13,528 nt of DNA from a virus (IMGVR_UViG_2778261256_000011), one strand, 5' to 3'. Counted from the stretch's first letter, positions 1 to 13,528 are shown. Program-made: numbers and translations. The notes: generated by a model from the sequence alone, not told the origin.

Positions 1-570
1 TGTCGTTCTCAAAATCGGTGGAGCTGCATGACAAAGTCATCGGGCATTATCTGAACATAAAACACTATCAATAAGTTGGAGTCATTACCCGCATGATTCA
101 GCAGATAAATCCTTGAAAGCAGGTACTCAGCCCTCAGTGAACAGAATAAGTCAGCGTAATGTACTTTAGTGCTGACCACGTGCTCTGTATGATACAGAAT
201 CTATCTACTATAAACGAAAATACAGCACGATCAATGCTCACACTCTATATGGGACGTTCGTACCTGGACATGATTATCTGTGTTCAATGTCCCCGCATGA
301 CCGTCTTAACATCCAGAATATTACGTTTCCAAAAAAACCAGAAATGATAAAAAATGAGCTTAACGTACAATAATTTTCGATATCCAAACTGACCCCGTAA
401 AGGATGTTTCGGCTCTCTTATCGCAGCGTCTGAAACTGGCAGTGCTTGTTTGGCATGTCCGGATAGACCCGAGTGCCACCAGTCAGCCAAAGAGGTTGCG
501 ATTTCGATGTATGGGAAGTTCGTTGGCTTCCCCAATGACAAAATCAAGAAAACCAGAAAGGTAAAAACAC

Positions 571-3500
571 ATGAAGGCTCTGATGGTCAGAACTGACTTC
601 TCCCTGGGAGAGTCGGCTCTAAAAGCAGAAAACGCGGTGAAAATCGCGAGAGACGCTGGCTACACCGCTGTCATTTCCGCCGACAGCATGAATATTGCCA
701 GTGTAATCCCTCTGCAACGTGCCGCTGGCGACGACATGTCGGTAATTTGTGGCGTTAAGCTGAATGTTGTCGACGATCCGACATACGAGCACCGCGCTCG
801 CTTGGCGAAAGAGTCAGGAAGATGTATGGAATCATTAGTTCGTGATCGCAGCTACTGTTTCACGGCACTGATAAAGAATGAACAAGGTTATCGCGACGTG
901 TGCGAACTGATGACCTTAGCGAACAAACGCGAGCAATTCTACTTTGTCCCGCGTCTGGCGCTTGAGCAGCTGGCAGCCGCATATGCCAAAGGCAACATCA
1001 TCCTGCTGACGTCCGACATTGGCAGTGTATTCCAGCGCCGGGACTTCGCAAAAATTATCGGGACGCTGGTCACAGCTGGCGGTCGCGATAACTTCTACAG
1101 CGTGGTTTATCCGCACCCTACCCCATTCTACGACCAGATTAACGTCCGGGCGATGAAAGTGGCGAGCGCACTGAAAATAGAGCCAGTGGCGTTCTATCCC
1201 GCTTATTACGAAGCGATCGACGACGCTGACATTAAAGACATTGCGCACATGGTTACGAACAACATCAAAATCGACCAGCCGCATCGTCTGCGCATCCCCC
1301 ACCAGCGAGATAACGCTGTTAATGGTCGTCGCCATCTCCTTGAAGCGCTGAAAGCCTTCTCCGTTCGCATGGGCGTACCGGTAACAGCTGCAATGGCCTC
1401 AACAACGCAGGACACCATTATTGAAGCCTGCACATGGCGCTGGCATGAACTGCCACCAGCACTGCCCAAGATGGCAGACGACGAGCCTGCAACGCTGATG
1501 AAGCTGGCTGTCGCGGGGCTACGCAAGCGTCTAACTACTAAAGAGTTTGGCTACACACCACAGGCTTCTGAGCACCGAGTGTATGTTGAGCGACTGAAGT
1601 ACGAAATGGACACACTGACCCGTCTGGGCTTCTGTGGCTACTTCCTGATGGTACGCGATCTGATGAATCACAGCCGTGAAACTGGCATTCCTGTCGGGCC
1701 AGGTCGTGGTTCCTCTGCCGGTTCTCTGGTGGCGTGGTGCATAGGCATAACCAACGTCGATCCTATCCGTCACGGTCTTCTGTTTGAGCGTTTCATCAAC
1801 CCTGAACGTCTTGACTTACCGGATGCGGATCTGGACTTCAGCCAGGCACGTCGTCATGAGGTGATCGAGTATCTGAATGAACGCTATGGCGAAGATTACG
1901 TTGCCGGTATTCCAAACTTCACCTATCTGGGCGCCGCTTCTGCGCTGCGAGACACTGCGCGTATTTACGGTGTCGACGCTGCGGATATGGCGGTATCCAA
2001 AGAGTTCAAGAATCTGGAAGACGATAGCCTGTCTCTGGAAGAGCTGCGCGAGCAACTGGCCAGCCTGGACAAATACGCCACGAAAAACCCGGAAGCGTTC
2101 AAAGCGGCGTGTAAGCTACAAAGCCTGATGCGTGGTTTTGGCCGTCATGCAGCGGGGATGATCGTCGCTGGCGTTCCACTGGTAGAGCGCACGCCCGTCG
2201 AGCTGCGTGGCAACGCTCGCTGTATTGCATTCGATAAACGTTACTGCGAGGCAATGGGGCTGATTAAGCTGGACGTTCTCGGTCTGGCAACGCTCGATCT
2301 GCTGGATAGCGCGAAACGCTACATCAAAGAGAGTACCGGGGAAGACATCAATCTCGATGCTATCCCACTGGACGATCGCAAAGTTCTGGATGGGTTCGCT
2401 GCAGGGTACACTCAGGGCGTATTCCAGCTGGAGTCCGGCCCCATGCGCAAGCTGCTTAAAGATCTGGGCGGTGGCATTGAGCCAATGAGCTTCAAAACCG
2501 TTGTCGCCACGACCGCACTCTTCCGACCTGGCCCGATTCAATCAGGCATGTTGGACGACTATGTCTCCGTGGCCAAAGGCTTCATGGCTCCACATTCAAT
2601 TCATCCGCGTCTTGAGGAAGTCACCCGGGAGACTAATGGTGTTTTGCTCTATCAGGAACAAATCATGCAAAGTTCCCGAGTACTTGCCGGGTTCTCTATG
2701 GCCGAAGCAGACGCTCTGCGTTCCGCTATCGGTAAAAAGAACATGGATAAGATGAAAGCGATCGGCAGCGATTTTGTAGAACGAGCACAAGCAGGCTGGG
2801 TGACACTGTCACTCAAAAATGGAGGTACTGTAGAGGTTCACAAACACGCAAAACTGGATTGCTCAGACGGTAAGCGTAGAAGCTACAGCGAGGCTATTAG
2901 TGACGGCATAGACTACGTGGAGATCGTCTCTGAACAAGAAGGTCTCAGTAAGGAAAAAGCCCAAGAAATATGGGACGCCTTTGAGAAGTTCGGTGGATAT
3001 GCCTTCAACAAATCACACAGCGTTGCTTATTCTTTAATCAGCTATCAGTCTATGTGGTTAAAGACACATTACCCTGCTGAGTTCTTCGCTGCTGCGCTCA
3101 CCATTCTGGGCGAGGATAAGCACCAGGGCTTAGTTAAAGATGCGCTGACCTATGGCATTCGCGTATTGCCACCAGACGTTAACGTGTCATCTAACCGAAT
3201 TGAGATCCGCACGCTGGAAGACGGCAGTCAGGTTCTGTATGCACCATTCTCTGCTGTGAAAGGCTGCTCTGAGAATGGTTGCCAGGCCATCATGAGAGCG
3301 CGTGAGAAAGTTGGCGGCAAATTCGAATCACTGGCGCAATTTGAGGAATCTGTCGAGAAGCGAGCATGTAATAGCCGGGTACGCGAGTCGCTGCAAAAAG
3401 TCGGTGCGTTCGCATCGATTGAGCCTGGCTGTCTGCCAGCGACAGATCCGGAACGACTGCGCGACCAGGCAGAGTTGATGGGCAATCTGGTGATCGACGC

Positions 3501-4077
3501 TGTAAAAGCCTCTCGACCGTTCGAGATGAACCCTAAGCGCTCTGCCGAGGTGAATGTACTGATGACTCGCATGGCGGCCGAAATGGGTCTGGGAGACGAC
3601 CTGATCCGCCCAAGCATTGGCATTAAGCCGAAAATCATGGTCATTCTGGACAACGCGAACGGCAATGATGGGCGTACCGGCTACTTCATGGAGAACGGCT
3701 ACGACGACTTTAAGGCGAAGTTGCTTACTGCAGGCGATCTGCGCATGGGCGATCTCTACGTCACAGGCGTGTGCAAAAAGGTGAAGGACAAAGAGAAGGA
3801 CTACACCAAAGACGAGATCGGCCAGTTCACCGACTTTATGCGTGAAGAGATCAATCTGGTGCGTCCGACCTATGTACTGACGTGTGGCAGCCGGGCGACG
3901 TCGCTCTTCAACAACAAGAGCAAACCATCCGACCTGGTTGGACGCAAAGAGTATCTGCCGGAGCTGGATGCGACCGTTTTCTACGGATTTAACCCGAATA
4001 TCCTTTACTTCCGACCGGAAGAAGGAGAGCGACTGGAGGCCATTCTGACTGATATTGCGGAGACGATAAATAAGTAA
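571..4077 (+). CDS. dnaE: DNA polymerase III alpha subunit homologue (DnaE-type, family C replicative polymerase), 1168 aa
   Basis: Translation contains the hallmark DnaE palm/fingers motifs: GYFLMVRDLMNHSRETGIPVGPGRGSSAGSLVAWCIGITNVDPIRHGLLFERFINPERLDLPDADLDF, LFRPGPIQSGMLDDY, VLLYQEQIMQ, and FGGYAFNKSHSVAYSLISYQSMWLKTHYPAEFFAA. Length is close to E. coli DnaE (1160 aa). The N-terminal PHP region (MVRTDFSLGES) lacks the two His of the usual HxH metal motif, so it is a divergent paralogue. AAGG Shine-Dalgarno 9 nt before ATG 571; TAA TAA double stop at 4075-4080. Confidence 0.9.
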   Translation: MKALMVRTDFSLGESALKAENAVKIARDAGYTAVISADSMNIASVIPLQRAAGDDMSVICGVKLNVVDDPTYEHRARLAKESGRCMESLVRDRSYCFTALIKNEQGYRDVCELMTLANKREQFYFVPRLALEQLAAAYAKGNIILLTSDIGSVFQRRDFAKIIGTLVTAGGRDNFYSVVYPHPTPFYDQINVRAMKVASALKIEPVAFYPAYYEAIDDADIKDIAHMVTNNIKIDQPHRLRIPHQRDNAVNGRRHLLEALKAFSVRMGVPVTAAMASTTQDTIIEACTWRWHELPPALPKMADDEPATLMKLAVAGLRKRLTTKEFGYTPQASEHRVYVERLKYEMDTLTRLGFCGYFLMVRDLMNHSRETGIPVGPGRGSSAGSLVAWCIGITNVDPIRHGLLFERFINPERLDLPDADLDFSQARRHEVIEYLNERYGEDYVAGIPNFTYLGAASALRDTARIYGVDAADMAVSKEFKNLEDDSLSLEELREQLASLDKYATKNPEAFKAACKLQSLMRGFGRHAAGMIVAGVPLVERTPVELRGNARCIAFDKRYCEAMGLIKLDVLGLATLDLLDSAKRYIKESTGEDINLDAIPLDDRKVLDGFAAGYTQGVFQLESGPMRKLLKDLGGGIEPMSFKTVVATTALFRPGPIQSGMLDDYVSVAKGFMAPHSIHPRLEEVTRETNGVLLYQEQIMQSSRVLAGFSMAEADALRSAIGKKNMDKMKAIGSDFVERAQAGWVTLSLKNGGTVEVHKHAKLDCSDGKRRSYSEAISDGIDYVEIVSEQEGLSKEKAQEIWDAFEKFGGYAFNKSHSVAYSLISYQSMWLKTHYPAEFFAAALTILGEDKHQGLVKDALTYGIRVLPPDVNVSSNRIEIRTLEDGSQVLYAPFSAVKGCSENGCQAIMRAREKVGGKFESLAQFEESVEKRACNSRVRESLQKVGAFASIEPGCLPATDPERLRDQAELMGNLVIDAVKASRPFEMNPKRSAEVNVLMTRMAAEMGLGDDLIRPSIGIKPKIMVILDNANGNDGRTGYFMENGYDDFKAKLLTAGDLRMGDLYVTGVCKKVKDKEKDYTKDEIGQFTDFMREEINLVRPTYVLTCGSRATSLFNNKSKPSDLVGRKEYLPELDATVFYGFNPNILYFRPEEGERLEAILTDIAETINK

Positions 4078-4082
4078 TAAAG

Positions 4083-4107
4083 AAAAACCCGCCATTTGGC
4101 GGGTTTT
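4083..4107. terminator. Bidirectional rho-independent terminator between convergent genes
   Basis: aaaaaCCCGCCatttGGCGGGtttt: GC-rich 6-bp stem (4088-4093 / 4098-4103), 4-nt loop, T-run on the plus strand and A-run (T-run on minus) on the other side. It sits between the polymerase stop and the stop of the minus-strand gene. Confidence 0.65.
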
Positions 4108-4666
4108 ATGCGCAAATTTTTTCGCAGTCTTGCGAGTGACTGAGTGAGCGAGTAACTCTCTCCACCTCATGAATGTCGCCCAACGATCTTATACGCAGGG
4201 CAAGATTCCACGTACTCAATGTGCGCGCGTTACGCACCAGTTCTTCCCGTGCTTTTTCGTCTTTGCTGTCAAGACGACCGCAGTCGTTCAACCATTTAGC
4301 GACTTCCGCCCAGTCCCAGAGTGGAGACTGACCGCTGATACGCTGAACAGGGCAAGGAAAATCACCTTTGCCACGTAATCCGTCTTTAAGCAGAGTAATA
4401 GCCTGGCGCGTTAAGCCAGAGAGTTGAGCAATATCGCTCAAGCCTACCAGTGCTGAATCTACCGATTCCACCACTGCGCCAATGCCTGCTGTTTCAATAT
4501 CAAGGATTGCCGATTCGATTGCTTCATCTAAAGATTTAGCTTCTCGGTCAAATTCTACATACACTGAGTTTCCGTAGTAGCAAATGAGCGCATCATCGCA
4601 ACCGTGGCTATACAGAGCATCTGCGACTACGCAGTACTGACTACAGGTTATCAGAATTATCCCCAT
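4106..4666 (-). CDS. Hypothetical protein with a central helix-turn-helix-like segment; N-terminal region weakly HicB/UPF0150-like
   Basis: 186-aa ORF starting at ATG (plus 4664-4666), convergent with the polymerase gene. Segment LSDIAQLSGLTRQAITLL looks like an HTH recognition unit; the preceding SLDEAIESAILDIETAG resembles the helix of HicB-type antitoxin domains. No convincing Shine-Dalgarno and no partner toxin ORF nearby, so both the call and the function are tentative. Confidence 0.4.
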   Translation of the reverse strand: MGIILITCSQYCVVADALYSHGCDDALICYYGNSVYVEFDREAKSLDEAIESAILDIETAGIGAVVESVDSALVGLSDIAQLSGLTRQAITLLKDGLRGKGDFPCPVQRISGQSPLWDWAEVAKWLNDCGRLDSKDEKAREELVRNARTLSTWNLALRIRSLGDIHEVERVTRSLSHSQDCEKICA

Positions 4667-4756
4667 TTACATCAGCTTATCTACGTCAGCCCTCAAGTTC
4701 TTCAGCAAGCCAGCTCCACCGCCTGATTCCAACATGATAAAATTGATATGCGAAAA

Positions 4757-4775
4757 TAAGTATATAGATAACATT
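4757..4775 (+). promoter_or_regulatory. Copy 1 of bipartite motif TAAGTA-N6-TA(T/A)CATT (TAAGTAtatagaTAACATT), directly abutting ATG 4776
   Basis: Shares the TAAGTA half-site, the 6-nt spacing and 6/7 of the second half-site with the copies at 5226-5244 and 10003-10021. All three lie upstream of plus-strand genes. Confidence 0.3.
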
Positions 4776-5207
4776 ATGAGCACCGATATCTACGAAAAAA
4801 TCATGTCCGATCTGGAGTTCGACCGCGACAATCTGGAGGAAGTCTGGCGTCAGCAACCGCGTCTGTTGATGGAGTATGGCTCTAAGCTGGCACGGGCAGA
4901 ACGTGAGGTTGCAGATGCAAAACTCTCTCTCGACGCGATCGAGGCAAAAATCTATGACAACGAGCGTAAGAGCTTGAGTATGAATGGAATTAAGTTTAAT
5001 GAATCCGTACTGGAAGCGAAGGTTAGAACCAACCCGCAATACCTCGCAAAGCGCCAGAAACTCGACGATGCTCGACACATTGCAGACCTGTACAAGCACG
5101 CTGTAGCCGCCTTCTCCCACCGCCGCGATATGATTGTCCAGGCGTCGAAGATGGCTATCGTAGAGATAGAGCGTCTGGGGGCCGAACGATTCCATTTACC
5201 CCGTTAA
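4776..5207 (+). CDS. Hypothetical charged, predicted coiled-coil protein (143 aa from ATG 4776; the ORF track's alternative start at 4734 gives 157 aa)
   Basis: Open frame with protein-like composition (ARAEREVADAKLSLDAIEAKIYDNERKSL). The overlapping minus-strand ORF 4686-5195 has Cys-rich, non-protein-like composition. Neither candidate start has a clear Shine-Dalgarno; 4776 was chosen because the conserved motif copy lies immediately upstream of it. Confidence 0.45.
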   Translation: MSTDIYEKIMSDLEFDRDNLEEVWRQQPRLLMEYGSKLARAEREVADAKLSLDAIEAKIYDNERKSLSMNGIKFNESVLEAKVRTNPQYLAKRQKLDDARHIADLYKHAVAAFSHRRDMIVQASKMAIVEIERLGAERFHLPR

Positions 5208-5225
5208 TTTATGCTAGATAGTAAG

Positions 5226-5244
5226 TAAGTACTAATCTATCATT
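5226..5244 (+). promoter_or_regulatory. Copy 2 of bipartite motif TAAGTA-N6-TATCATT (TAAGTActaatcTATCATT), about 80 nt upstream of the ssb start
   Basis: 15/19 positions identical to the copy at 10003-10021 with identical half-site spacing; the core AGTACT is palindromic. Confidence 0.3.
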
Positions 5245-5326
5245 CTTCTCGCTCGAAAGAGCCACGAACAAACGAACGCCCAATGCGCATAGCGCCAATG
5301 GCCACAATCACAACAAGGAGAAATAC

Positions 5327-6343
5327 ATGTCTAAGTCATTACTTGATCTGCTTAACAAGACCCGTGGCGATATTGCTTCCAAACGTGGCAATAACATTGA
5401 TTTGACCCGTCTGAAAGATGGCAATAACTATCTGCGCATTTTTCCGAACAAGGACGATCCGAATGGCGTGTTCTTCCAGACTTTCGGTATGCACTACGTT
5501 AAGCATCAGAATGAGGAAGGCAAAGATGTAACCACCGCCTATATCTGCGAACAACACACCCACGGCCACGCTTGCCAGCTGTGTGAGATGGTTATGGAAG
5601 GTCGCGCTCGCTTTAAGGGCAACAAAGCGATGGAAGAGCGCATTAATAGTATGCGTGCTACGCCGCGTTATCTGGTCAACGGTGTTCTGTCTGCGCGTGA
5701 AGACTTTGCGGACGCAGAGAAATGCCAGCTAATTGAGCTGCCGTCTACGGTCTTCGACGATATCTGCAAAGTGATGTCCGAAGATATTGCGGACGATATT
5801 GGCAACCCACTGAGCAAAGAAGAAGGCTATGCGTTCCTGATTAAACGCACCGGTTCCGGTCGTGACACCAAGTACGACGTATCCCCGAAACGTAAAGTCT
5901 ACAAAGGCGACATTCCTGAGAAGCTCTGGACTACCCAACACGATCTGATCGCATATGCGAACCAGTCTGACGAAACTCGTTTGCTGTCCACGGCTCGCAC
6001 TATGGGTCGTCTGATTGGTATTGCGGCTCCGGCAGCAACTATGCCCTCACCAGCCATTTCTTCCGCTGCAAAATCAGCCGCAGCTGGACTGCCAGGCTTT
6101 GGCTCTATCACTGGACATACGGAAGGCACAGCTGCTGTCGCTACAGCACATACTCCGGCGCCAGAGTCCACCAGCCTGGTTGATGAAGAGATCCTGCGAG
6201 CAGCTGAAGCTGAGTTCAAACCGGAAGAAGCGAAAGCTCCGGAAGCCACCGAAGCCGCAAGTGCTTCAGCATCTGCTGCCGCTGCATCTGTACCAGCTGA
6301 TGAAGGTCTCGATGACCTGCTGGCTGAACTGGACGCTCTGTAA
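5327..6343 (+). CDS. T4 gp32-like single-stranded DNA-binding protein with zinc-binding subdomain, low-complexity linker and acidic C-terminal tail
   Basis: N-terminal pattern LKDGNNYLRIFPNKDDPNGVFF parallels the gp32 LDNAGNGQAVIRFLPSKND region. His/Cys cluster CEQHTHGHACQLC fits the gp32 His-Cys3 zinc site. C-terminal third is Ala/Ser/Pro/Glu-rich and ends in the acidic DDLLAELDAL. Strong AAGGAG Shine-Dalgarno 6 nt before ATG 5327; TAA stop followed by a terminator. Confidence 0.75.
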   Translation: MSKSLLDLLNKTRGDIASKRGNNIDLTRLKDGNNYLRIFPNKDDPNGVFFQTFGMHYVKHQNEEGKDVTTAYICEQHTHGHACQLCEMVMEGRARFKGNKAMEERINSMRATPRYLVNGVLSAREDFADAEKCQLIELPSTVFDDICKVMSEDIADDIGNPLSKEEGYAFLIKRTGSGRDTKYDVSPKRKVYKGDIPEKLWTTQHDLIAYANQSDETRLLSTARTMGRLIGIAAPAATMPSPAISSAAKSAAAGLPGFGSITGHTEGTAAVATAHTPAPESTSLVDEEILRAAEAEFKPEEAKAPEATEAASASASAAAASVPADEGLDDLLAELDAL

Positions 6344-6359
6344 TCCCATAACGTGACCA

Positions 6360-6388
6360 GTAAGGCGTCTGCGGACGCCTTACTTTTT
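6360..6388 (+). terminator. Rho-independent terminator after ssb
   Basis: GTAAGGCGTCtgcgGACGCCTTAC: perfect 10-bp stem with a 4-nt loop, followed by TTTTT (6384-6388). Confidence 0.75.
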
Positions 6389-6403
6389 GGAAGGAGTGTA
6401 CCG

Positions 6404-7348
6404 GTGAATTATCTCTTTGTGGACGGTAACAGCCTGGGCTATTACCACCAGCAATCCGACAAATTACACAACGGCGAGATGGAAGTTCAGGCGGCTTTTG
6501 GCTTCGTGAAGAACGTTCGTCGTTACGCCTCAATTCTCCATGCCCGGCCAATGATCTTGTGGGATGGATTCAGCGACAAACGTCGCGACTTCTACCCGGA
6601 GTACAAAGCGAACCGCGACGACGACCCGGACATGAAGAAGATGAAAGAAGGCTTTGCCATCCAGAAGCCGTACATCTTGAAAATGATGACCGCGCTGGGC
6701 GTTAACCAACTCATTGCAAAGGACGCAGAAGCGGATGACCTGGCTGGAATGCTGGTCTCTCGTCTGGCTCCGCAGCCGACTGTTGACCATATCTATCTGC
6801 TAACGGGCGATGGCGACTGGCTCCAGCTTGTTCGTGAGAACGTGAGCTGGATAAGCCTGCGTGAAGACGCCAAGCACAAGCAGGTGAACTTCGAACAGTT
6901 CGCAGAGCTGACCGGTCTGCCGACCCCACGCGCGTTTCTGGAAGCGAAAGCGTTGCAGGGCGATAACTCGGACAACATCAAAGGCGTAGGTGGCATTGGT
7001 GATGGTGGCGCGAAAGAGCTGCTTCATGAATGGGGAAGCGTGGCCGCAATGGTACGCGGCATTAACGACGGTTCCATTGTCATCAACAAAGGTCGCTATA
7101 AGACGGCATTCAACAAGCTGGCAAAGAACGCCTTCAACGAGAAGACGGGCTGCCGGATGCTCGAAGCCTTTAAGCGCAACATGATGCTGATGAACCTTAT
7201 CGACACAAAATTCCCACCCAGCGAAATCGAGTCGATTAAAGGCGCACGCGATATGAGCGCCTTTGAACAGATGTGTTACGAGCTGAATTTCCGTTCGTTT
7301 CTGGAAGATCTGGAAGTGTTTGTTCTGCCGTTTGAGAGGTATTGCTGA
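6404..7348 (+). CDS. 5'-3' exonuclease / flap endonuclease (DNA Pol I 5'-nuclease / T5 D15 / T4 RNase H family), GTG start
   Basis: Conserved family motifs: LFVDGNSLGYY (N-terminal metal site), EADDLAGMLVS, LLTGDGDWLQL, and the H3TH motif ALQGDNSDNIKGVGGIGDGGAKELL. The GTG at 6404 is 7 nt after GGAAGGAG and lies just downstream of the terminator hairpin; the ATG at 6353 used by the ORF track would put the hairpin inside the coding sequence. TGA stop at 7346-7348 overlaps the next ATG (TGATG). Confidence 0.85.
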   Translation: MNYLFVDGNSLGYYHQQSDKLHNGEMEVQAAFGFVKNVRRYASILHARPMILWDGFSDKRRDFYPEYKANRDDDPDMKKMKEGFAIQKPYILKMMTALGVNQLIAKDAEADDLAGMLVSRLAPQPTVDHIYLLTGDGDWLQLVRENVSWISLREDAKHKQVNFEQFAELTGLPTPRAFLEAKALQGDNSDNIKGVGGIGDGGAKELLHEWGSVAAMVRGINDGSIVINKGRYKTAFNKLAKNAFNEKTGCRMLEAFKRNMMLMNLIDTKFPPSEIESIKGARDMSAFEQMCYELNFRSFLEDLEVFVLPFERYC

Positions 7349-7614
7349 TGCTGAAATCCATCATTAATGGCGGGGCAACTACGCCAACCATGCTGGCAAA
7401 GGAGATTGTTTTCTGCCACGGCGAGCACGCTGTGGTAGCGCTGCCGAACATTCTGGGCGCTGCTGGCATCTCTGCTACTGAGCGTGAGTTCGCGCTGGTC
7501 AGTGAGCAGGTCGTGAAGATCATCGCTCGCGTCGCCAAACACCTGAACCACGACGCAATCAAGTTTGACGAAGCCGCTGCTTCGAAGCGAATCAACGAAT
7601 CAAAAGGAGCCTAA
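7348..7614 (+). CDS. Hypothetical 88-aa protein, translationally coupled between the nuclease gene and recA
   Basis: ATG overlaps the upstream TGA; TAA stop 2 nt before the recA ATG; GAGG about 9 nt upstream. No recognisable motifs. Confidence 0.5.
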   Translation: MLKSIINGGATTPTMLAKEIVFCHGEHAVVALPNILGAAGISATEREFALVSEQVVKIIARVAKHLNHDAIKFDEAAASKRINESKGA

Positions 7615-7616
7615 TC

Positions 7617-9959
7617 ATGGCAAAAGGCAAATCCGCACTGGCACTGGCGCTGAAAAAGAAAATCGGCAGCAATGACGAGATTCAGAAGGTCTCCCACTGG
7701 ATTGACTCCGGTTTCCCTCCACTGAACAAAGCCATTTCCTGACGTTACGACGGTGGTTTTCCGTGTGGGCGTATCGTTGAAGTCTTCGGGCCACCAAGCG
7801 CGGGGAAATGTGTTACCGCAGACACCATGCTGCTGACGGAGCGTGGAATGGTAACAGTGAAAGAACTGTTTGAGATTGAGGGGCACAAAGCAACATGCAC
7901 TACTCGCGATGTAGAGCATAACGTTGGACTCATCAATGAAAATGGCGTGATAGAGAAGACCTCACACCTGACATGGAACAACCGTCGCAAATTCAAGCGC
8001 ATTAAGCTGGCATCAGGGGGTTACATCGAGGCTACGTTCCGTCACCCAATTCGTGTGGTTGACGACTTAGGCAATATCGTCTGGCGGTATGCTGAAAAAA
8101 TCAGTGTAGGCGACACGATTCCTTCAATGGTTGGCACACATCAATTCGGCGATCAGCACTTGGATGCCAATATCGCAAAACTGATGGGCTATTTAATTGC
8201 TGACGGATACGTGGCCTCTGAAAATTCTGTGCATTTTTCTAACACAGATCCATTCATCAAGGATGAGTACTACCGCCTCATTTCGCTGGTATCAGACAAG
8301 ATGCCAGTTACGAGAAAACATAACGGCTCGGAAGACCATGTGCTGTTTAGCAAAGAGGTGCGTTCGCTGCTTTTTAAAGAATATGGTCTGGAGTATGAGA
8401 AAGCTGCTGGCAAGCAGGTTCCGTTGAGTGTGCGTCGCGCCAATAGCGAGGCTCAAATTGCATTCCTTCGCGGCTACTTTGAGCTGGAATGCCACGTCAA
8501 TGATGGTCGCTGCATTGAGGTTGTGAGCGCGAGTGGGTTGCTGCTACAGCAAATTCGCCTCATGCTCCTGAATCTGGGGATTACGTCAACTATCTCTGAA
8601 AAACACGTCGCAGGTTATAAAAACATATATTACCGGCTGTCATTCAGTGGCTCTAACTACGACCTTTTCCTGTCAACGATTGGGTTCGAGTCTCCGGCTC
8701 GTTTAGCAGTGGCAACCAAACGGGACATTAGTTTTGACCGCACTTATTTAGGCTACGTTCCGCACATCAGCGGCTTAGTGAAATCACTCTACGAGTCACT
8801 CACCAAGACCTCTCGTAAAGACTACGTTCTGGTAGATCACGTTATTGGCCGCGGCGATCGTGTCGGAATAGACAAACTGCGAGAAATCTATGTCTCCTTC
8901 ATTGGCAGAAAGAATCGTTTTAACGAGCATCTGTTTGCACAACTGGCAGCGGTAATTGACTCTAACTTGTTCTACGACGAAGTCGTGGCTATTGAGGAAG
9001 GTGAAGCACCAACGTTCGACGTAGCGATGCCGGAAACACACTCTTTCTGGTCTAACGGGATTATCAGCCACAACACATTCCTCGCGACGGCTGCGATGGT
9101 GTCAGCACAAACACAGGATGGTCTGGCCGTATTCCTTGACCACGAAAACAGTTTCGACGTTGGTCTGGCGGTAGCGAACGGACTGAACGCCGACGAAGAC
9201 GACGGTCAGTGGGTCTACAAACAGCCGGATACCTTCGAAGACTCCGTAGAGCTGATCGGCACAATCCTCAAGCTGGTGCGCGACGAAGAGCTTATTCCGG
9301 AAACAGCCCCTATCTGCATCGTAGCCGACTCTCTGGCGTCGATGGTTCCGAACTCGAAGGCTGAGAAGTTCGACAAGATGGCAGAAGGCACTGCGAAGGA
9401 CAAAGATCAGCTGAACATGAACGACAACACGGCGCTGGCGCGCGCGACAAGTGCGAACTTCCCTACTCTGGCGCTTTGGGCGCGTAAGTACAACGCGTGC
9501 ATCATCTTCTTGAACCAGGTGCGTACCAAAATTGGTGTGATGTTTGGCGATCCGACTACGTCTCCGGGTGGCGACTCTCCGAAGTTCTACGCGTCGGTGC
9601 GCATCCGTCTGGGTGCATCCGTCATGAAGGATGGCAAAGAGAAGATCGGACAGGACGTTGGCGCCGAGTGCATTAAAAACAAAGTCGCGCCTCCGTTTGG
9701 CAAATGCTCATGGAAATTCTACTTCGACCCGACTCGCGGGCTGGACGTCGTCGAGTCTCTGGTTGAATACATGCTGGAGGAAGGATACCTGCCCAAGAGC
9801 GCCAGCGGGCGTGTGGAAATTGGCGAGAAGAAATACACCAAATCGCAGATCGTCGAGATGTACCGCGAGAAGCCACTCCCGGAAATCATCGCAGCACTCC
9901 AGGCGATAGACGAACGGCGAGCGAAAGAGTCGTCACCAGCAGAGACAGAAGAAGCGTAA
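7617..9959 (+). CDS. recA: RecA recombinase homologue (bacterial RecA type) interrupted by an intein in the P-loop and by an in-frame TGA in the N-extein; may be a pseudogene or need stop-codon readthrough
   Basis: AAGGAG Shine-Dalgarno 7 nt before ATG 7617. N-extein MAKGKSALALALKKKIGSNDEIQKVSHWIDSGFPPLNKAIS, then TGA (7740-7742), then in the same frame RYDGGFPCGRIVEVFGPPSAGK (Walker A; compare E. coli RecA [21 protein letters not shown]). C-extein TFLATAAMVSAQ ... CIIFLNQVRTKIGVMFGDPTTSPGGDSPKFYASVRIRLGA closely matches RecA [38 protein letters not shown]. No ATG/GTG/TTG lies in frame between the TGA and the P-loop. Spliced product would be about 357 aa. Confidence 0.85.
7809..9074 (+). mobile_element. 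Intein (422 aa) with LAGLIDADG homing endonuclease domain, inserted between the Walker A Lys and the following Thr of RecA
   Basis: Begins with Cys directly after GPPSAGK (CVTADTMLLTE, block A) and ends with SHN followed by a +1 Thr (block G). Block B TxxH is present (ATFRHPIRV). Two LAGLIDADG motifs (LMGYLIADGYV and FLRGYFELECHV). Block F-like VVAIEEGEAPTFDVAMPETHSFWSNGIISHN. Removing the segment restores a contiguous GPPSAGK-TFLATAAM P-loop. Confidence 0.85.
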
Positions 9960-9965
9960 TCACAA

Positions 9966-9987
9966 GACGTCCATTGGACGCCTTTTT
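9966..9987 (+). terminator. Probable rho-independent terminator after recA
   Basis: GACGTCCattGGACGCC: 7-bp stem with one mismatch and a 3-nt loop, followed by TTTTT (9983-9987), 7 nt after the recA TAA. Confidence 0.5.
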
Positions 9988-10002
9988 ATACTTGAAAGTA
10001 TA

Positions 10003-10021
10003 TAAGTACTTACTTATCATT
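10003..10021 (+). promoter_or_regulatory. Copy 3 of bipartite motif TAAGTA-N6-TATCATT (TAAGTActtactTATCATT), 28 nt upstream of ATG 10050
   Basis: Contains the perfect 10-bp palindrome TAAGTACTTA; matches the other two copies in both half-sites and spacing. Confidence 0.3.
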
Positions 10022-10049
10022 TCTACACCCAAACGACAAAAGGAAACAC

Positions 10050-10250
10050 ATGATTAAGGGTTATCTCATGGCTGTTTCAGCAGTGGTATCAGTCTGCTTT
10101 ATTTACGGTTTACTGGTTCCATCGCTTATATCAGCTAAAAGCGATCTGGCCTTCTTTATCGGACTTGCCATCGCTTTAATCTTCCCGGTTGCCTTGTTAA
10201 AAGCTGGCCGCAGGTATATCAACTCACTCAATAAAACTAAGGAGAAGTAA
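10050..10250 (+). CDS. Small (66 aa) predicted two-helix membrane protein
   Basis: Two hydrophobic stretches (AVSAVVSVCFIYGLLVPSLI and LAFFIGLAIALIFPVALL) separated by a short polar turn; basic C-terminus. AGGA 5 nt before the ATG; TAA stop. Confidence 0.5.
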   Translation: MIKGYLMAVSAVVSVCFIYGLLVPSLISAKSDLAFFIGLAIALIFPVALLKAGRRYINSLNKTKEK

Positions 10251-10253
10251 GTA

Positions 10254-10445
10254 ATGAAGAAAGGTTTACTGGCGGTGGCTTTGGCTGCTATTTGCACAAT
10301 GGGTCTGACCGGCTGCGATCGCGTGGAACCGGGATACGTTGGCATTAAGGTAAACAAATTGGGTGAAGACAAAGGTATCGGTGAAGTTGTCGGCGTTGGC
10401 CGTCAGTGGACTGGTCTGAATACCGAGCTGTACACCTCTCTTTAA
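10254..10445 (+). CDS. Small (63 aa) predicted lipoprotein
   Basis: Signal peptide MKKGLLAVALAAICTMGLTG followed by Cys (lipobox LTGC). GGAG 9 nt upstream. Mature part about 43 aa (DRVEPGYVGIKVNKLGEDKGIGEVVGVGRQWTGLNTELYTSL). Confidence 0.5.
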   Translation: MKKGLLAVALAAICTMGLTGCDRVEPGYVGIKVNKLGEDKGIGEVVGVGRQWTGLNTELYTSL

Positions 10446-10468
10446 GTCATCTTAAATGACTCTGAGGT

Positions 10469-10516
10469 GTCTGTTAAACCTGTGGCGATTCAGTCTATTA
10501 AACCTGTAGCGATTCA
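10469..10516. repeat. Two tandem copies of a 24-bp unit (GTCTGTTAAACCTGTGGCGATTCA / GTCTATTAAACCTGTAGCGATTCA; 22/24 identical)
   Basis: Direct reading of the sequence: units at 10469-10492 and 10493-10516 in perfect register. Located in the intergenic region where the sequence appears to shift to lower GC, upstream of hsdM. Confidence 0.8.
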
Positions 10517-10677
10517 CTTTATGGTGTCATAAACTTAAATCTAGCGCCGGGTAGAACAAGTTAATCGAACGATGTAGCGGCCATTTAGGCGTTACAGAAA
10601 GAACAGAATTTTAAATTTATAGTGAAGCCGTTGCAGCAACTTTGTGGGGTGCAACCAACACTGAACAGGAAAAGAAA

Positions 10678-13107
10678 ATGGATCATAGTGTACATAACAA
10701 GCTCATCTCATTTATTTGGAACATTGCCGACGACTGTTTACGTGATGTGTACGTTCGCGGTAAGTACCGCGATGTGATTTTACCTATGGTGGTATTACGA
10801 CGTTTAGATACGTTACTTGAACCCACCAAAGAAGCCGTGCTTGAAGAGGTCAAGTTCCAAAAAGAAGAGATGCAAGCCACGGAGCTTGATGATGAACCAT
10901 TGAAGGCGGCTAGTGGTTATGTTTTTTACAATACATCTAAATGGACCCTGAAATCCCTGTTCAACACCGCAACGAATAACCAACAGATATTACTCGCCAA
11001 CTTTGAAGAGTACCTGCTTGGCTTTAGCGATAATGTTAAAGAAATCATTGAATGCTTTAACCTCAAGTTGCAAATTCGTCACATGGCCTCAAAGCAAGTC
11101 CTTCTTGATGTCGTCGAAAAGTTTGTTTCCCCTTACATCAACTTAACTCATGAAACGGTCGAAGACCCAGATGGCAACAAGATGCCAGCCCTTACTAACC
11201 TGGGTATGGGGTACGTGTTCGAAGAGTTGATCCGTAAGTTCAACGAGGAGAATAACGAAGAAGCCGGTGAGCACTTTACACCTAGGGAAGTGATTGAGCT
11301 GATGACACACTTGGTTTTTGACCCAGTGAAAGAGCAGCTACCATTGACCATGACCGTTTACGACCCTGCGTGTGGTAGCGGTGGTATGCTCACTGAATCT
11401 CAAAACTTCATTGAAGAGAAATACCCGAACGACAGCCGAGATATTTACCTTTACGGCAAAGAGATCAATGACGAGACCTACGCGATTTGTAAATCGGACA
11501 TGATGATCAAAGGTAACAACCCTGAGAACATCAAGGTAGGCTCAACCTTGTCTACCGACGAGTTTGCGGCTTCTCGCTTTGACTTTATGTTGTCTAACCC
11601 GCCATACGGTAAGAGTTGGGCGTCTGAACAGAAGTACATTAAAGACGGCAGTGATGTGATTGACCCGCGTTTTAAGGTTAGCCTGAAAGACTATTGGGGA
11701 AATCTCGAAGTGGTGGATGCCACGCCACGTTCGAGTGATGGCCAGCTGCTTTTCTTAATGGAGATGGTCAACAAGATGAAAGATCCGAGCGTAAGTCCAT
11801 TAGGCAGCCGGATTGCCTCTGTTCATAACGGCTCATCGCTCTTTACCGGTGATGCGGGCAGTGGCGAAAGTAATATTCGTCGCTTCATCATTGAAAACGA
11901 CATGCTAGATGCCATCGTTCAGTTACCTAATAACCTGTTCTATAACACTGGCATTACCACTTACATTTGGGTGTTGAACAACAATAAACCTGAGGCGCGT
12001 AAAGGTAAGGTGCAATTAATTGATGCCAGCTTGCTCTACCGTAAGTTGCGCAAGAACTTAGGTAACAAAAACTGCGAATTTGCGCCTGAGCACATCACGG
12101 AAATTACCGATACTTACCTCGCGTGTAAGGATGTTGAAAGAGCACTGGATGCAAACAATGATCCTGTTGGCATCGCCAGTAAGGTATTCAGCAATGACGA
12201 TTTTGGCTACTACAAAGTCACTATAGAGCGCCCAGATCGCCGCAAAGCCAAGTTTACTCAAGACGCAATAGCCCCACTGCGTTTTGATAAGCAACTTAGT
12301 GAAGTGATGGAGTACGTGTACGCAGAGCACGGCGAACGTGTTTACGAAAAAACTGGCTACGGGTCAGCTCAGAAAAAGAGCTTCTTAAAATCCATCGAGA
12401 AAGACATTCTTTCTTGGTGTGAAGATAACGACATCAGTCTCAATGCTAAGGCTAAGGCCAAACTGCTTGATGTGAAACACTGGCTGGCGCTAAAAGCATT
12501 GCTTGAAACTGCACAAACGCTGATGGCTGACATCGGTAGCATTGAATTTGATGACTTCAATAGCTTTAAAACCCAAGTTGATAAATCGCTAAAAGCCCAT
12601 GCTATTAAGCTTTCAGCACCTGAGAAAAATGCCATTCTTCACGCGGTGAGCTGGTATGACGAAACCGCCAAGAAAGTGGTTAAAAAGGTAGTTAAATTAA
12701 CGGGTGATAAATTAAACGACCTGCTGGAGCGCTATGAGTGTGAAGTCGCTGACTTGCCAGATTTTGGTTATTACCCCGTTCCTTCAGCAGAAGGCGGTAA
12801 AAAAGGCGAGTATATCACTTACGAGACCAATTCAGACCTGCGAGATACAGAATCTGTTCCATTAAAGCAAAGCATTTACCAGTACTTCCTAGATGAAGTG
12901 AAGCCTCATGTCGATGAAGCATGGATAAACCTAGATACGGTAAAAATTGGCTATGAAATCAGCTTCAATAAGTATTTCTACCGTCATAAACCGCTGCGTA
13001 GTTTAGAAGAGGTCGCAACCGACATCATCAACCTAGAACAAAAAGCCGAAGGTCTCATTGCGCAGATATTGGGTGTTAAAGTGGCGGAAGCTCAGGGAGA
13101 AGCGTAA
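10678..13107 (+). CDS. hsdM: Type I restriction-modification system methyltransferase subunit HsdM (long form, about 809 aa, with C-terminal extension)
   Basis: N-terminal HsdM domain (ISFIWNIADDCLRDVYVRGKYRDVILPMVVLRRLD), AdoMet motif I VYDPACGSGGML, and N6-adenine catalytic motif IV LSNPPYG. Start moved to ATG 10678 (AGGA 7 nt upstream) rather than the upstream alternative-codon start at 10642. TAA stop overlaps the next ATG (TAATG). Confidence 0.85.
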   Translation: MDHSVHNKLISFIWNIADDCLRDVYVRGKYRDVILPMVVLRRLDTLLEPTKEAVLEEVKFQKEEMQATELDDEPLKAASGYVFYNTSKWTLKSLFNTATNNQQILLANFEEYLLGFSDNVKEIIECFNLKLQIRHMASKQVLLDVVEKFVSPYINLTHETVEDPDGNKMPALTNLGMGYVFEELIRKFNEENNEEAGEHFTPREVIELMTHLVFDPVKEQLPLTMTVYDPACGSGGMLTESQNFIEEKYPNDSRDIYLYGKEINDETYAICKSDMMIKGNNPENIKVGSTLSTDEFAASRFDFMLSNPPYGKSWASEQKYIKDGSDVIDPRFKVSLKDYWGNLEVVDATPRSSDGQLLFLMEMVNKMKDPSVSPLGSRIASVHNGSSLFTGDAGSGESNIRRFIIENDMLDAIVQLPNNLFYNTGITTYIWVLNNNKPEARKGKVQLIDASLLYRKLRKNLGNKNCEFAPEHITEITDTYLACKDVERALDANNDPVGIASKVFSNDDFGYYKVTIERPDRRKAKFTQDAIAPLRFDKQLSEVMEYVYAEHGERVYEKTGYGSAQKKSFLKSIEKDILSWCEDNDISLNAKAKAKLLDVKHWLALKALLETAQTLMADIGSIEFDDFNSFKTQVDKSLKAHAIKLSAPEKNAILHAVSWYDETAKKVVKKVVKLTGDKLNDLLERYECEVADLPDFGYYPVPSAEGGKKGEYITYETNSDLRDTESVPLKQSIYQYFLDEVKPHVDEAWINLDTVKIGYEISFNKYFYRHKPLRSLEEVATDIINLEQKAEGLIAQILGVKVAEAQGEA

Positions 13108-13528
13108 TGGAGCGTTTAGCATTGATGCCGAAATATGAGGATTATGTAGATTCTGGAGTTGAATGGTTAGGGGATTTACCGAGCCATTGGGACGCAGTAA
13201 AAATGAAGTTTCTTTTCAAAGATACGTCGATGAAAAACAAGCCTAACGAAACTTTATTATCTGTTACACAAAGTCAAGGTGTTGTTCCCAGAGAGTGGGT
13301 AGAAAACAGAATGGTTATGCCATCTGGCAATCTAGAAAGCTTCAAGTTCATTGCAAAAGGTGACTTTGCTATAAGCCTTCGTTCCTTTGAAGGTGGTTTG
13401 GAGTATTGTCATCATGATGGAATCATAAGCCCTGCTTATACGGTGTTAAAAACTAAGAAAGATTATCTACTTGCAGGATATTACAAATATTTGTTTAAAA
13501 GTCAGACTTTTATTTCAGAGTTACAAAC
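13107..13528 (+). CDS. hsdS: Type I restriction-modification specificity subunit HsdS, 5' portion only (runs off the window end)
   Basis: Translationally coupled to hsdM. Translation MERLALMPKYEDYVDSGVEWLGDLPSHWDAVKMKFLFK ... KGDFAISLRSFEGGLEYCHHDGIISPAYTVLKTKKDYLLAGYYKYLFKSQTF fits the HsdS target-recognition-domain pattern. It is absent from the ORF track because no stop is reached before the window ends. Confidence 0.75.
   Translation, partial: MERLALMPKYEDYVDSGVEWLGDLPSHWDAVKMKFLFKDTSMKNKPNETLLSVTQSQGVVPREWVENRMVMPSGNLESFKFIAKGDFAISLRSFEGGLEYCHHDGIISPAYTVLKTKKDYLLAGYYKYLFKSQTFISELQ

Follow-up and report, generated by a model that had tools for sequence, protein, structure and literature searches.

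The recombination and replication genes of the window (the whole 13,528-nt stretch of DNA analysed) very probably form the lytic-replication and recombination block of a phage-plasmid of the SSU5/pHCM2 type carried by E. coli. The module comprises a DnaE polymerase, a minus-strand regulator, a UvsY-like mediator, a gp32-type SSB, a T5-type flap endonuclease, a small ORF, and RecA (Table 1). Such a gene block is already catalogued, and its odd polymerase features are family traits. The first-pass annotation proposed a replication and recombination module with a divergent DnaE, and its reading as part of a mobile (phage) element whose DnaE is not the host's is supported. Its four genes for DnaE, gp32-like SSB, flap endonuclease, and RecA are Pfam-confirmed on the plus strand, but it missed the minus-strand regulator between them and overlooked the UvsY-like gene as well as the UDG-like domain at the C-terminus of DnaE.

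Table 1. Features of the module, with positions counted from the first nucleotide of the window.
Feature	Position	Strand	Evidence
dnaE, phage-type Pol III alpha, 1168 aa	571..4077	+	Pfam, phmmer, AF2, Foldseek
47-aa fingers insertion of DnaE, aa 742-788	2794..2934	+	Alignment to DnaE of E. coli and to remote homologues
Family-4 UDG-like domain of DnaE, aa ~1018-1168, replacing the OB fold and tau-binding domain	3622..4074	+	
GC-rich hairpin, 10 pairs, between convergent dnaE and regulator; likely bidirectional terminator	4084..4107		
HTH regulator, AlpA-like/HicB-like, 186 aa	4106..4666	-	PHROG, RefSeq
UvsY-like recombination mediator, 143 aa	4776..5207	+	AF2, Foldseek, Cyrano annotation
gp32-family ssDNA-binding protein, 338 aa, Ala/Glu-rich acidic C-terminal tail	5327..6343	+	Pfam, PHROG
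5'-3' exonuclease/flap endonuclease (FEN), ORF open from 6353	6404..7348	+	Pfam
Conserved small ORF, 88 aa, function unknown, between FEN and recA	7348..7614	+	
recA, bacterial RecA type, with intein and in-frame TGA	7617..9959	+	Pfam RecA 6e-30
422-aa LAGLIDADG intein in RecA Walker A/P-loop, GPPSAGK/C...SHN/T	7809..9074	+	
Terminator-like hairpin (9968-9980) and T tract, 3' of recA	9968..9990	+	

The window covers 13.5 kb of its replicon and is 99.5% identical to plasmid pYUXYEH3934-1 (NZ_CP110979) over 97% coverage; the closest relative is a 188-kb multiresistance cointegrate plasmid. In nucleotide comparison, phages SSU5 and Cyrano match nt 396-10000 with 86-94% identity over 85-93% coverage, and the gene order is identical in SSU5, pJN2-26, Cyrano, and contigs L006-L009, L019, and L020. 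Nucleotide similarity and synteny place the element in the SSU5 supergroup of phage-plasmids, in which RecA-like genes are persistent (Pfeifer et al. 2021, PMC7969092). Like the Salmonella phage SSU5, the S. Typhi plasmid pHCM2, and the E. coli phage-plasmid Cyrano, it has dnaE, regulator, uvsY-like, gp32, exonuclease, small ORF, and recA in the same order. In contrast to SSU5 and Cyrano, the window has an IS1-bounded junction upstream of dnaE and a type I R-M system inserted downstream, and lacks the hicA and DUF7740 genes that lie between dnaE and uvsY in both phages. Virion, lysis, RepA, and partition genes are present in the relatives. The best full-length matches are on plasmids, the other matches are phage genomes, and a 61-nt recA probe finds plasmids in 29 of 29 matches and a chromosome in none. 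These plasmid-borne matches contradict an ordinary chromosome with this DnaE as the sole host replicase, the case set against the proposal at the outset.

RecA matches bacterial RecA (~1e-35) better than T4 UvsX (2e-5). The end of its gene had been placed correctly, whereas the start is at 7617 and not at 7827, and the reading frame contains an intein and a TGA. The intein boundaries were set by comparison with the intein-less RecA of SSU5; removal of the intein restores GPPSAGK/T, and the spliced extein is identical to SSU5 RecA at 352 of 358 residues. Pfam matches comprise Intein_splicing (1.5e-11) and LAGLIDADG_3 (3.5e-18), and the sequence shows Cys1 (CVTAD...), a TFRH block B, the SHN/T junction, LMGYLIADG, and LRGYFELE. 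It is thus a class 1 LAGLIDADG intein with a precise presence/absence polymorphism, being present in the window and Cyrano and absent in SSU5. Because of the TGA (7740-7742, codon 42), which occurs in this copy only, full-length RecA cannot be made from it. The codon may be private or a sequencing error, since it is absent from 29 of 29 complete E. coli plasmids carrying the segment.

This nonsense codon would also fit a decaying, 'plasmidised' phage-plasmid derivative in which the replication and recombination block is an unused relic. In the same direction, an IS1 end (1-88) and unrelated DNA (89-395) replace the CobT/AAA5 genes found upstream of dnaE in every relative, the R-M insertion truncates the downstream SPFH gene, the nearest relative is a multiresistance cointegrate, and DnaE-RecA deletion fusions occur among the homologues (P0088, P0093, P0118). 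Against decay, the reading frames of dnaE, uvsY, gp32, FEN, and the intein are open and intact, the differences of dnaE from its relatives are mostly synonymous-looking third-position changes, and the TGA appears in none of the complete plasmids. Cyrano, with the same block, makes virions (PMC9928086). A relic is considered rather unlikely, and the block is read as a lytic gene set.

The UvsY-like protein lies directly upstream of gp32, and its AF2 model (pLDDT 90.8) has T4 UvsY as all of its top 19 Foldseek PDB matches (TM 0.66-0.90), while the next-best non-UvsY PDB matches reach TM <=0.51. Sequence comparison gives a different result: there is no Pfam match at E<=10, including PF11056, no UvsY match of the family profile in the PDB, and an hhalign probability of 1.5% (E 0.035) against eight UvsY sequences. 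The 143-aa ORF has a UvsY fold, as predicted by the model, with a relationship undetectable by sequence. The gp32-like protein matches Pfam gp32 (PF08804; 7.7e-72, 242 bits against a cut-off of 26.8) over the entire model (1-208/208), and phrog_1192 SSB (1.4e-119). Its family membership is given by the Pfam HMM, as phmmer against solved structures finds no gp32. Its sequence shows a Cys/His cluster (YICEQHTHGHACQLC), a candidate for the Zn-binding cluster that T4 gp32 has at His64/Cys77/Cys87/Cys90. The flap endonuclease has both the resolvase-like domain (5_3_exonuc_N, PF02739, 2e-24) and the H3TH domain (5_3_exonuc, PF01367, 4e-12), and its closest solved relative is the T5 D15 exonuclease (8.7e-17).

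The regulator matches phrog_2620 'excisionase and transcriptional regulator' (4.6e-85) and is labelled 'helix-turn-helix transcriptional regulator' in RefSeq. The small ORF matches phrog_2207 (3e-58) and occupies the same position in SSU5, pJN2-26, and L006-L009. Operon-like packing is seen from uvsY through gp32, FEN, and the small ORF to recA. The genes had been described as separated by terminators, which holds for convincing hairpins after dnaE and recA only; the 15 hairpins of the window are no excess over shuffles (13.6 +/- 3.5).

The module is not self-contained, contrary to the initial suggestion. It represents about 10 kb of an SSU5-type phage-plasmid of ~100-110 kb, and helicase, primase, and clamp genes are absent from the window, as initially stated. 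According to the annotation of Cyrano, genes for a DnaB-like helicase, a primase, and a ligase are found 9-15 kb upstream of the module. Downstream of it come RepA, SbcCD, RuvC, RNR, ThyX, and an exonuclease of the epsilon-like type, followed at a greater distance by UvsW and RNase H. The pairing of gp32 with a family C polymerase, thought to be unusual, is real but is no peculiarity of the window. Even contigs with a DnaE of just 41-53% identity show the order CobT-AAA5-DnaE(UDG)-...-147 aa ORF-gp32-FEN-RecA again, so the pairing is conserved across the lineage.

A gp32-family SSB, a UvsY-fold mediator, and a RecA-family recombinase encoded side by side resemble T4, and by this analogy the composition of the replisome and recombination-dependent replication can be proposed. 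Compared with T4, the polymerase is of family C and not B, the recombinase resembles bacterial RecA more than UvsX, the helicase is annotated as DnaB-like, the flap nuclease is of the T5 type and not T4 RNase H, and no clamp or clamp loader is annotated. RepA, encoded outside the window, would serve plasmid upkeep, and the element would use its own replisome on induction. DnaE would be the catalytic subunit, acting alongside the DnaB-like helicase, the primase, and the ligase that the phage encodes. It would probably run on the host beta clamp, because no clamp gene is annotated in 27.6-108.4 kb of Cyrano, and would be proofread in trans by the phage epsilon-like exonuclease, because its PHP domain cannot bind metal. 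The flap endonuclease would remove Okazaki primers. As in T4, gp32 may coat ssDNA, UvsY may load the recombinase, and D-loops may prime recombination-dependent replication, giving concatemers for packaging. Concatemer formation could be aided by the SbcCD, UvsW, and RuvC homologues elsewhere, the Cyrano proteins (SbcC/SbcD-like, UvsW, RuvC) being presumably the counterparts of T4 gp46/47, UvsW, and gp49. A literature search found no experiment on the module.

DnaE contains a degenerate PHP domain, palm/thumb/fingers, (HhH)2, and the C-terminal UDG-like domain. Pfam matches comprise PHP, DNA_pol3_alpha (4e-73), finger (2e-46), and HHH_6; phmmer against the PDB finds Taq Pol III alpha (1.7e-125), Foldseek with the AF2 model (pLDDT 84) finds 2HPI (4.5e-58), and phrog_405 matches from end to end. 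D418, D420, and D568 (PDADLDF, KLDVLGL) are invariant in alignment A4, and comparison with E. coli DnaE suggests that they are the catalytic Asp triad. The polymerase active site is intact, and the protein is a DnaE-type C-family polymerase. The reported loss of the N-terminal PHP histidines is correct, with 'VHLRVHSDYS' of E. coli aligned to 'LMVRTDFS'. Later ligand positions (the TD-H, E, H83, and D201/H203 equivalents) are also replaced, and all metal ligands are thus lost.

The insertion noted before the fingers motif is likewise real. It comprises 47 residues between E. coli A731 and E732 and ends 18 residues upstream of FGGYAFNKSHS. DSSP on the AF2 model gives strands at 743-748, 753-757, 761-763, 769-771, and 782-789 and a helix at 772-777 (pLDDT 70-83), which is consistent with a beta-rich mini-module. 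The insertion point coincides exactly with the site where dnaE is split into two genes in relatives (L006-L009). In L006 and L007 a NUMOD4/HNH_3 endonuclease gene lies between ORFs of 787 and 389 aa, while in the window the halves are fused in frame, without the endonuclease gene. The insertion is inside a mosaic (recombination) patch of ~500 bp (nt ~2518-3080); the window dnaE has an SSU5-like backbone with a Cyrano-type patch around the insertion. The endonuclease gene between the halves, by a highly conserved polymerase motif, recalls phage genes interrupted by free-standing homing endonucleases, such as nrdA/mobE of phage Aeh1, and also the 'fractured genes' that Dassa et al. reportedly described in 2009. 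In contrast to 'fractured genes', dnaE has no recognisable split-intein halves.

It is very improbable that the insertion is what remains of a degenerated intein or split intein and not a docking module. It does lie ~20 residues upstream of the cyanobacterial DnaE split-intein site, which precedes CFNKSHS; it is beta-rich like the Hint N-terminal region; and the relatives have the homing endonuclease gene in 'fractured genes' style. However, it has only 47 aa, begins with GW and not with Cys/Ser/Thr, lacks a terminal HN-Cys/Ser/Thr, and stays in frame where the gene is fused, in two divergent alleles. The insertion gives no match to Pfam Intein_splicing, and its profile matches DnaE proteins only.

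The C-terminus of DnaE differs from that of the E. coli-type replicase DnaE1. It cannot be aligned to residues 960-1160 of the E. coli protein, and its fold is that of a UDG. QAELM (aa ~966-970) is a candidate clamp-binding motif, although MAFFT leaves E. coli QADMF unaligned with it. The UDG-like domain resembles family-4 UDGs in Foldseek (4ZBX, 1L9G, 1UI1; TMt 0.73-0.75), and profile A1 matches PDB UDGs at 1.4e-8. Pfam UDG (PF03167) scores 18.5 bits here, under the cut-off, against 25.6-48.1 bits in homologues, and is over the cut-off in P0096, P0107, and P0119. An active family 4 UDG has motif A GE(A/G)PG, motif B HPS, and four Cys for an Fe-S cluster. In the DnaE clade these motifs are altered to LDNAN and NPN, Asp is invariant and His absent in 11 of 11 aligned homologues, and inspection of the sequence reveals no Cys-x2-Cys upstream. 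These motifs argue against an active uracil-DNA glycosylase. The domain would most likely hold or inspect the single-stranded template, as the replaced OB fold would.

A DnaE variant with a C-terminal UDG domain is said to have been described by Aravind and Koonin in 2000 as well as by Timinskas and colleagues. Passages of the latter work from 2014 report this unusual architecture in Y. pestis and S. enterica copies and place it outside DnaE1-3 as 'DnaEX' (Timinskas et al., PMC3919608). The window protein is a DnaEX variant: its core is PHP-Pol3-(HhH)2, and a UDG of the archaeal type (family 4) takes the place of the OB and tau-binding CTD; the same passages are silent on the fingers insertion and on split genes. 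A type IV UDG fold covalently joined to a phage replicative polymerase is also found in UDG-fused A-family polymerases, which include inactive (N4-like) and active (SPO1/SP15-like) forms; in those with a solved structure, the UDG domain touches the 5' template strand (bioRxiv 2025.03.26.645540). In contrast, the present polymerase is of family C, and its UDG is C-terminal, in the OB fold position. A bacterial accessory or error-prone (DnaE2/ImuC-like) polymerase, or a host replicase, among unrelated cargo is scarcely credible: RefSeq does label the protein simply 'DNA polymerase III subunit alpha', and plasmid-borne C-family polymerases are mostly DnaE2 in the passages of PMC3919608, but the DnaEX architecture with UDG for OB and CTD domains, the end-to-end phrog_405 match, the lack of imuA/imuB neighbours, the synteny with phage genes down to 41% DnaE identity, and the exclusively plasmid-borne recA-probe matches all oppose it.

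The beta-rich insertion at the gene-split and homing-endonuclease site of relatives is possibly a new detail. As a small beta module at an endonuclease target, it may let split DnaE halves dock. On this tentative reading, which we regard as possible but doubtful, the N-fragment would contribute four strands and the helix and the C-fragment one strand, and the fused genes would be secondary re-fusions. The C-fragment strand YVEIVSEQ of the window DnaE is equivalent to KIAKVISEQ, which opens the C-fragment of the relatives. If docking is true, a C-family replicative polymerase would work as two non-covalently joined polypeptides once a homing endonuclease gene has divided its gene within the fingers domain. 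The split site would then be a natural one that a Pol III alpha has without any intein, and the case would illustrate how a host gene adapts when endonucleases invade it repeatedly.

In a megablast search of complete E. coli genomes, 13 records cover at least 80% of the whole window, and among the best matches listed all are plasmids of 96-189 kb. The best match, pYUXYEH3934-1 (NZ_CP110979), is a 188-kb tet(A) plasmid and the closest relative; it aligns with nt 396-13528 at 99.5% identity, with 70 substitutions and 0 indels. In a search of phage genomes, nt 396-10000 match Salmonella phage SSU5 (94% identity, 85% coverage), Escherichia phage Cyrano (86% identity, 93% coverage), and SSU5-like Klebsiella phages. 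SSU5, pHCM2, pMT1, and their relatives form the largest known phage-plasmid supergroup, the persistent genome of which includes RecA-like genes (PMC7969092). Cyrano produces virions and has about 5 plasmid copies per cell (PMC9928086). It follows that the window is part of a known element that has been well sampled.

The upstream region of dnaE adjoins IS1 and unrelated DNA at nt 395/396, the place of an AAA5 gene in relatives; in all relatives dnaE is preceded by CobT/AAA5 genes, which nt 1-395 replace here. Nt 1-88 match what we take to be an IS1 end, and the plasmid matches are annotated 'IS1 family transposase'; nt 89-395 have no relation to SSU5-type elements and are found beside IS1 on 137 other plasmids. 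A type I R-M system (hsdM, then the start of hsdS) follows codon 63 of the SPFH/stomatin gene (window 10254-13528), with a G+C content of 41-46% (hsdM segment 43%) against about 52%. It is an insertion, since the stomatin-like gene found there in SSU5 and Cyrano is complete, and the same insertion is found in NZ_CP110979. Codon 42 of recA is an in-frame TGA (G7740T, window 7740-7742). The closest relative has G at 7740, and all 29 of 29 complete E. coli plasmids with the 61-nt recA stretch are one base off the window (98.4% identity), so none has its exact sequence; the stop is a private mutation or a sequencing error. The nt 395/396 junction, the recA stop, and the R-M insertion suggest that this copy is a rearranged, possibly defective derivative.

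Genes in the window and their positions
Feature	Coordinates (nt)	Strand
dnaE	571-4077	+
HTH regulator	4106-4666	-
143-aa ORF (UvsY-like)	4776-5207	+
gp32-family SSB	5327-6343	+
5'-3' exonuclease/FEN	6404-7348	+
Conserved 88-aa ORF	7348-7614	+
recA	7617-9959	+
Small membrane-protein gene	10050-10250	+
SPFH/stomatin gene, first 63 codons	10254-10445	+
Type I hsdM	10642/10678-13107	+

The gene content agrees with the first-pass annotation in that no helicase, primase, or clamp gene is present in the window. A tRNA scan of the window found none, and no RNA family was found in it at the Rfam gathering threshold. The genes had also been described as separated by terminators; the terminator scan count is not above that of shuffles, and this description is dropped except for two hairpins. 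The interval between dnaE and uvsY (window 4078-4775) is variable when compared with those of two relatives (L004 5209-6785 and L002 22683-24659). SSU5 and the Klebsiella relatives have a DUF7740 gene between dnaE and uvsY, a hicA-like gene adjoins the regulator in SSU5 and Cyrano, and the window and NZ_CP110979 have the regulator alone.

The window DnaE has an intact active site (D418, D420, and D568 invariant) and an altered PHP domain. The loss of PHP His residues noted in the first reading is real: 'VHLRVHSDYS' of E. coli DnaE is 'LMVRTDFS' here. Other ligand positions are likewise replaced relative to E. coli DnaE, with ADS for TDF/TDH, K at the Glu position, C/F at H83, and YPAYY for NDVRF. 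The replacement is found in every homologue down to 41% identity and is thus a clade trait. The PHP domain of E. coli is itself partly degenerate and serves in epsilon binding; Cyrano encodes an epsilon-like exonuclease.

That description of DnaE, sound for the PHP loss and the insertion, missed the C-terminal UDG-like domain. Past the (HhH)2 region, the window DnaE shows no alignment to the OB and tau-binding domains of E. coli. With Pfam UDG, its final ~150 residues reach 18.5 bits, short of the cut-off, which the matching region in relatives exceeds (25.6, 27.5, and 48.1 bits). A profile of this region from 11 homologues matches four solved family-4 UDGs at ~1.5e-8. For the AlphaFold model of DnaE (pLDDT 84), the structural matches are Pol III alpha from Taq and E. 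coli at 1e-58 to 1e-49, followed by family-4 UDG and UdgX, with target TM of 0.60-0.75. The canonical UDG catalytic motifs have been lost (GE(A/G)PG reads LDNAN, and HPS reads NPN), so the domain probably has a non-catalytic role, which may be template-binding or uracil-sensing. UDG-fused A-family phage polymerases offer a parallel, and in these the UDG domain contacts the 5' template strand (bioRxiv 2025.03.26.645540). A 2014 paper describes the DnaE-UDG architecture as an additional polymerase in some Y. pestis and S. enterica strains (PMC3919608); these copies are pMT1 and pHCM2. Directly after (HhH)2, DQAELMG (DnaE aa ~966-970, nt ~3466-3480) is conserved in the clade as Q-[AVS]-[EL]-[LY]-[ML]. 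It resembles a beta-clamp-binding pentapeptide and is a candidate for one; MAFFT does not align it with QADMF of E. coli.

The insertion in the fingers domain, put at about 40 residues in the first reading, is 47 residues long (aa 742-788). It falls where A731 and E732 adjoin in E. coli DnaE, and it ends 18 residues ahead of FGGYAFNKSHS. Every homologue with 58% identity or more has it, and those at 41-53% (P0107, P0116, P0119, P0120) lack it. These distant homologues still have the UDG domain, and the insertion is therefore the younger feature. Its predicted structure consists of strands at 743-748, 753-757, 761-763, and 769-771, a helix at 772-777, and a strand at 782-789 (pLDDT 70-83), within a stretch that is otherwise helical in the model. 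Among 1.84 billion representative proteins, the insertion profile is found in DnaE only, after discarding adhesin-like multi-repeat proteins (LapA among them, each matching over 3-14 short stretches), which were judged compositional beta-hairpin matches. The matches of informative length are mostly N-parts of ~740-790 aa ending in the insertion.

Many relatives have dnaE divided into two genes. In two Klebsiella contigs (L006, L007), a 787-aa N-part terminates inside the insertion; next come a NUMOD4/HNH_3 homing endonuclease gene and then a 389-aa C-part starting MKIAKVISEQEGLS. In two other contigs (L008, L009), the halves are 70 nt apart, and the spacer has an inverted repeat and no endonuclease gene. 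In the spacer of L008 (8374-8443) the inverted repeat is perfect (AAAACAAGTTGTTTT...AAAACAACTTGTTT) and is accompanied by a fresh ribosome-binding site; this spacer may be a terminator or the footprint of endonuclease gene loss. The fused window sequence '...EAISDGIDY-VEIVSEQEGLS' equals the N-part tail plus the C-part head, and the split point lies between the predicted helix and the last strand of the insertion. The insertion may let the split halves dock. An intein remnant was rejected, as splicing residues are absent. Over most of its length the window dnaE shares 92-100% identity with SSU5, with 76% in the last 120 nt. At nt ~2518-3080, identity to SSU5 falls to 36-82%, whereas that to Cyrano is 97-100%; this is a recombination tract with the insertion at its centre, a pattern to be expected close to a homing site.

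The recA frame, labelled as a whole 'LAGLIDADG family homing endonuclease' in RefSeq, begins at 7617 and contains a 422-aa LAGLIDADG intein (nt 7809-9074), the boundaries of which were set against the intein-less SSU5 RecA (358 aa). The intein follows Lys64 in the Walker A motif (GPPSAGK|C...SHN|T) and has two LAGLIDADG motifs alongside Cys1, TFRH, and HN/Thr+1. Cyrano and most E. coli relatives share it; SSU5 and Klebsiella pJN2-26 lack it. The exteins are identical to SSU5 RecA at 352/358 positions, and are closer to bacterial RecA (~1e-35) than to T4 UvsX (2e-5). Three proteins from other contigs (P0088, P0093, P0118) are DnaE-RecA fusions arising from deletions. In P0088, DnaE residue ~775, inside the insertion, is joined to the last seven RecA-intein residues and the C-extein. 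The fusions point to decay, or to recombination between the two homing-element sites.

The 143-aa ORF was named UvsY by the Cyrano annotators. By sequence, it has no Pfam match at E<=10, its profile has no match among PDB sequences, and hhalign against eight UvsY of T4-like phages (the T4 member confirmed as 100% identical to T4) gives a probability of 1.5%. In its AlphaFold model (pLDDT 90.8), the top 19 PDB matches are all T4 UvsY chains (TM 0.66-0.90), and the next have TM <=0.51; on this predicted fold, it is accepted as a putative UvsY-fold mediator. Truncation of uvsY in the window was ruled out: the 143-aa form is common and the 150-aa form of NZ_CP110979 is the outlier. A phmmer search of the gp32-family SSB against the PDB gave no match. 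In the non-T4-like Vibrio phage 2.058.O (L017, 101.6 kb), a Pfam-recognised UvsY adjoins a helicase, a 5'-3' exonuclease, and an OB-fold protein, a set that may be a distant cousin of the window module.

Contrary to the first reading, the module is not self-contained, and other replication and recombination functions are encoded elsewhere in Cyrano. A DnaB-type helicase, primase, and ligase lie 9-15 kb upstream. RepA, SbcCD, RuvC, RNR, ThyX, DHFR, and the epsilon-like exonuclease lie downstream, with UvsW and RNase H beyond them. No clamp or clamp loader is annotated in Cyrano at 27.6-108.4 kb, the part inspected. The pairing of gp32 with a family-C polymerase, considered unusual in the first reading, does exist and is unlike T4, yet it is a conserved trait of a known lineage: the order CobT-AAA5-DnaE(UDG)-...-147 aa ORF-gp32-FEN-RecA is retained in ~40-100 kb contigs with DnaE only 41-53% identical. 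From this gene content we infer that RepA would drive plasmid maintenance and that, on induction, a phage replisome would be built around DnaE. Recombination-dependent replication would be primed by gp32, UvsY, and RecA, and FEN would process Okazaki fragments.

The first-pass observation is thus largely correct and incomplete, and its interpretation is partly supported. The replication/recombination feature is already known, and that the insertion marks a split site is a modest detail, possibly unreported. The literature searched includes no experimental study of the SSU5-type lytic replication machinery, and nothing specific on SSU5 with DnaE, gp32, UvsY, intein, or homing endonuclease. The main practical value is negative, as the 'unusual pairing' is a conserved family trait and not a new element. 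The natural split site in the fingers domain, with its associated homing endonuclease, could be of use in engineering split polymerases. Phage-plasmids of the SSU5 type, which carry resistance genes, occur commonly in E. coli, Salmonella, Klebsiella, and Yersinia. Their C-family polymerase, with the OB and tau-binding domains swapped for a UDG fold alongside a T4-like gp32/UvsY/RecA set, could, like the split site, be worth work.
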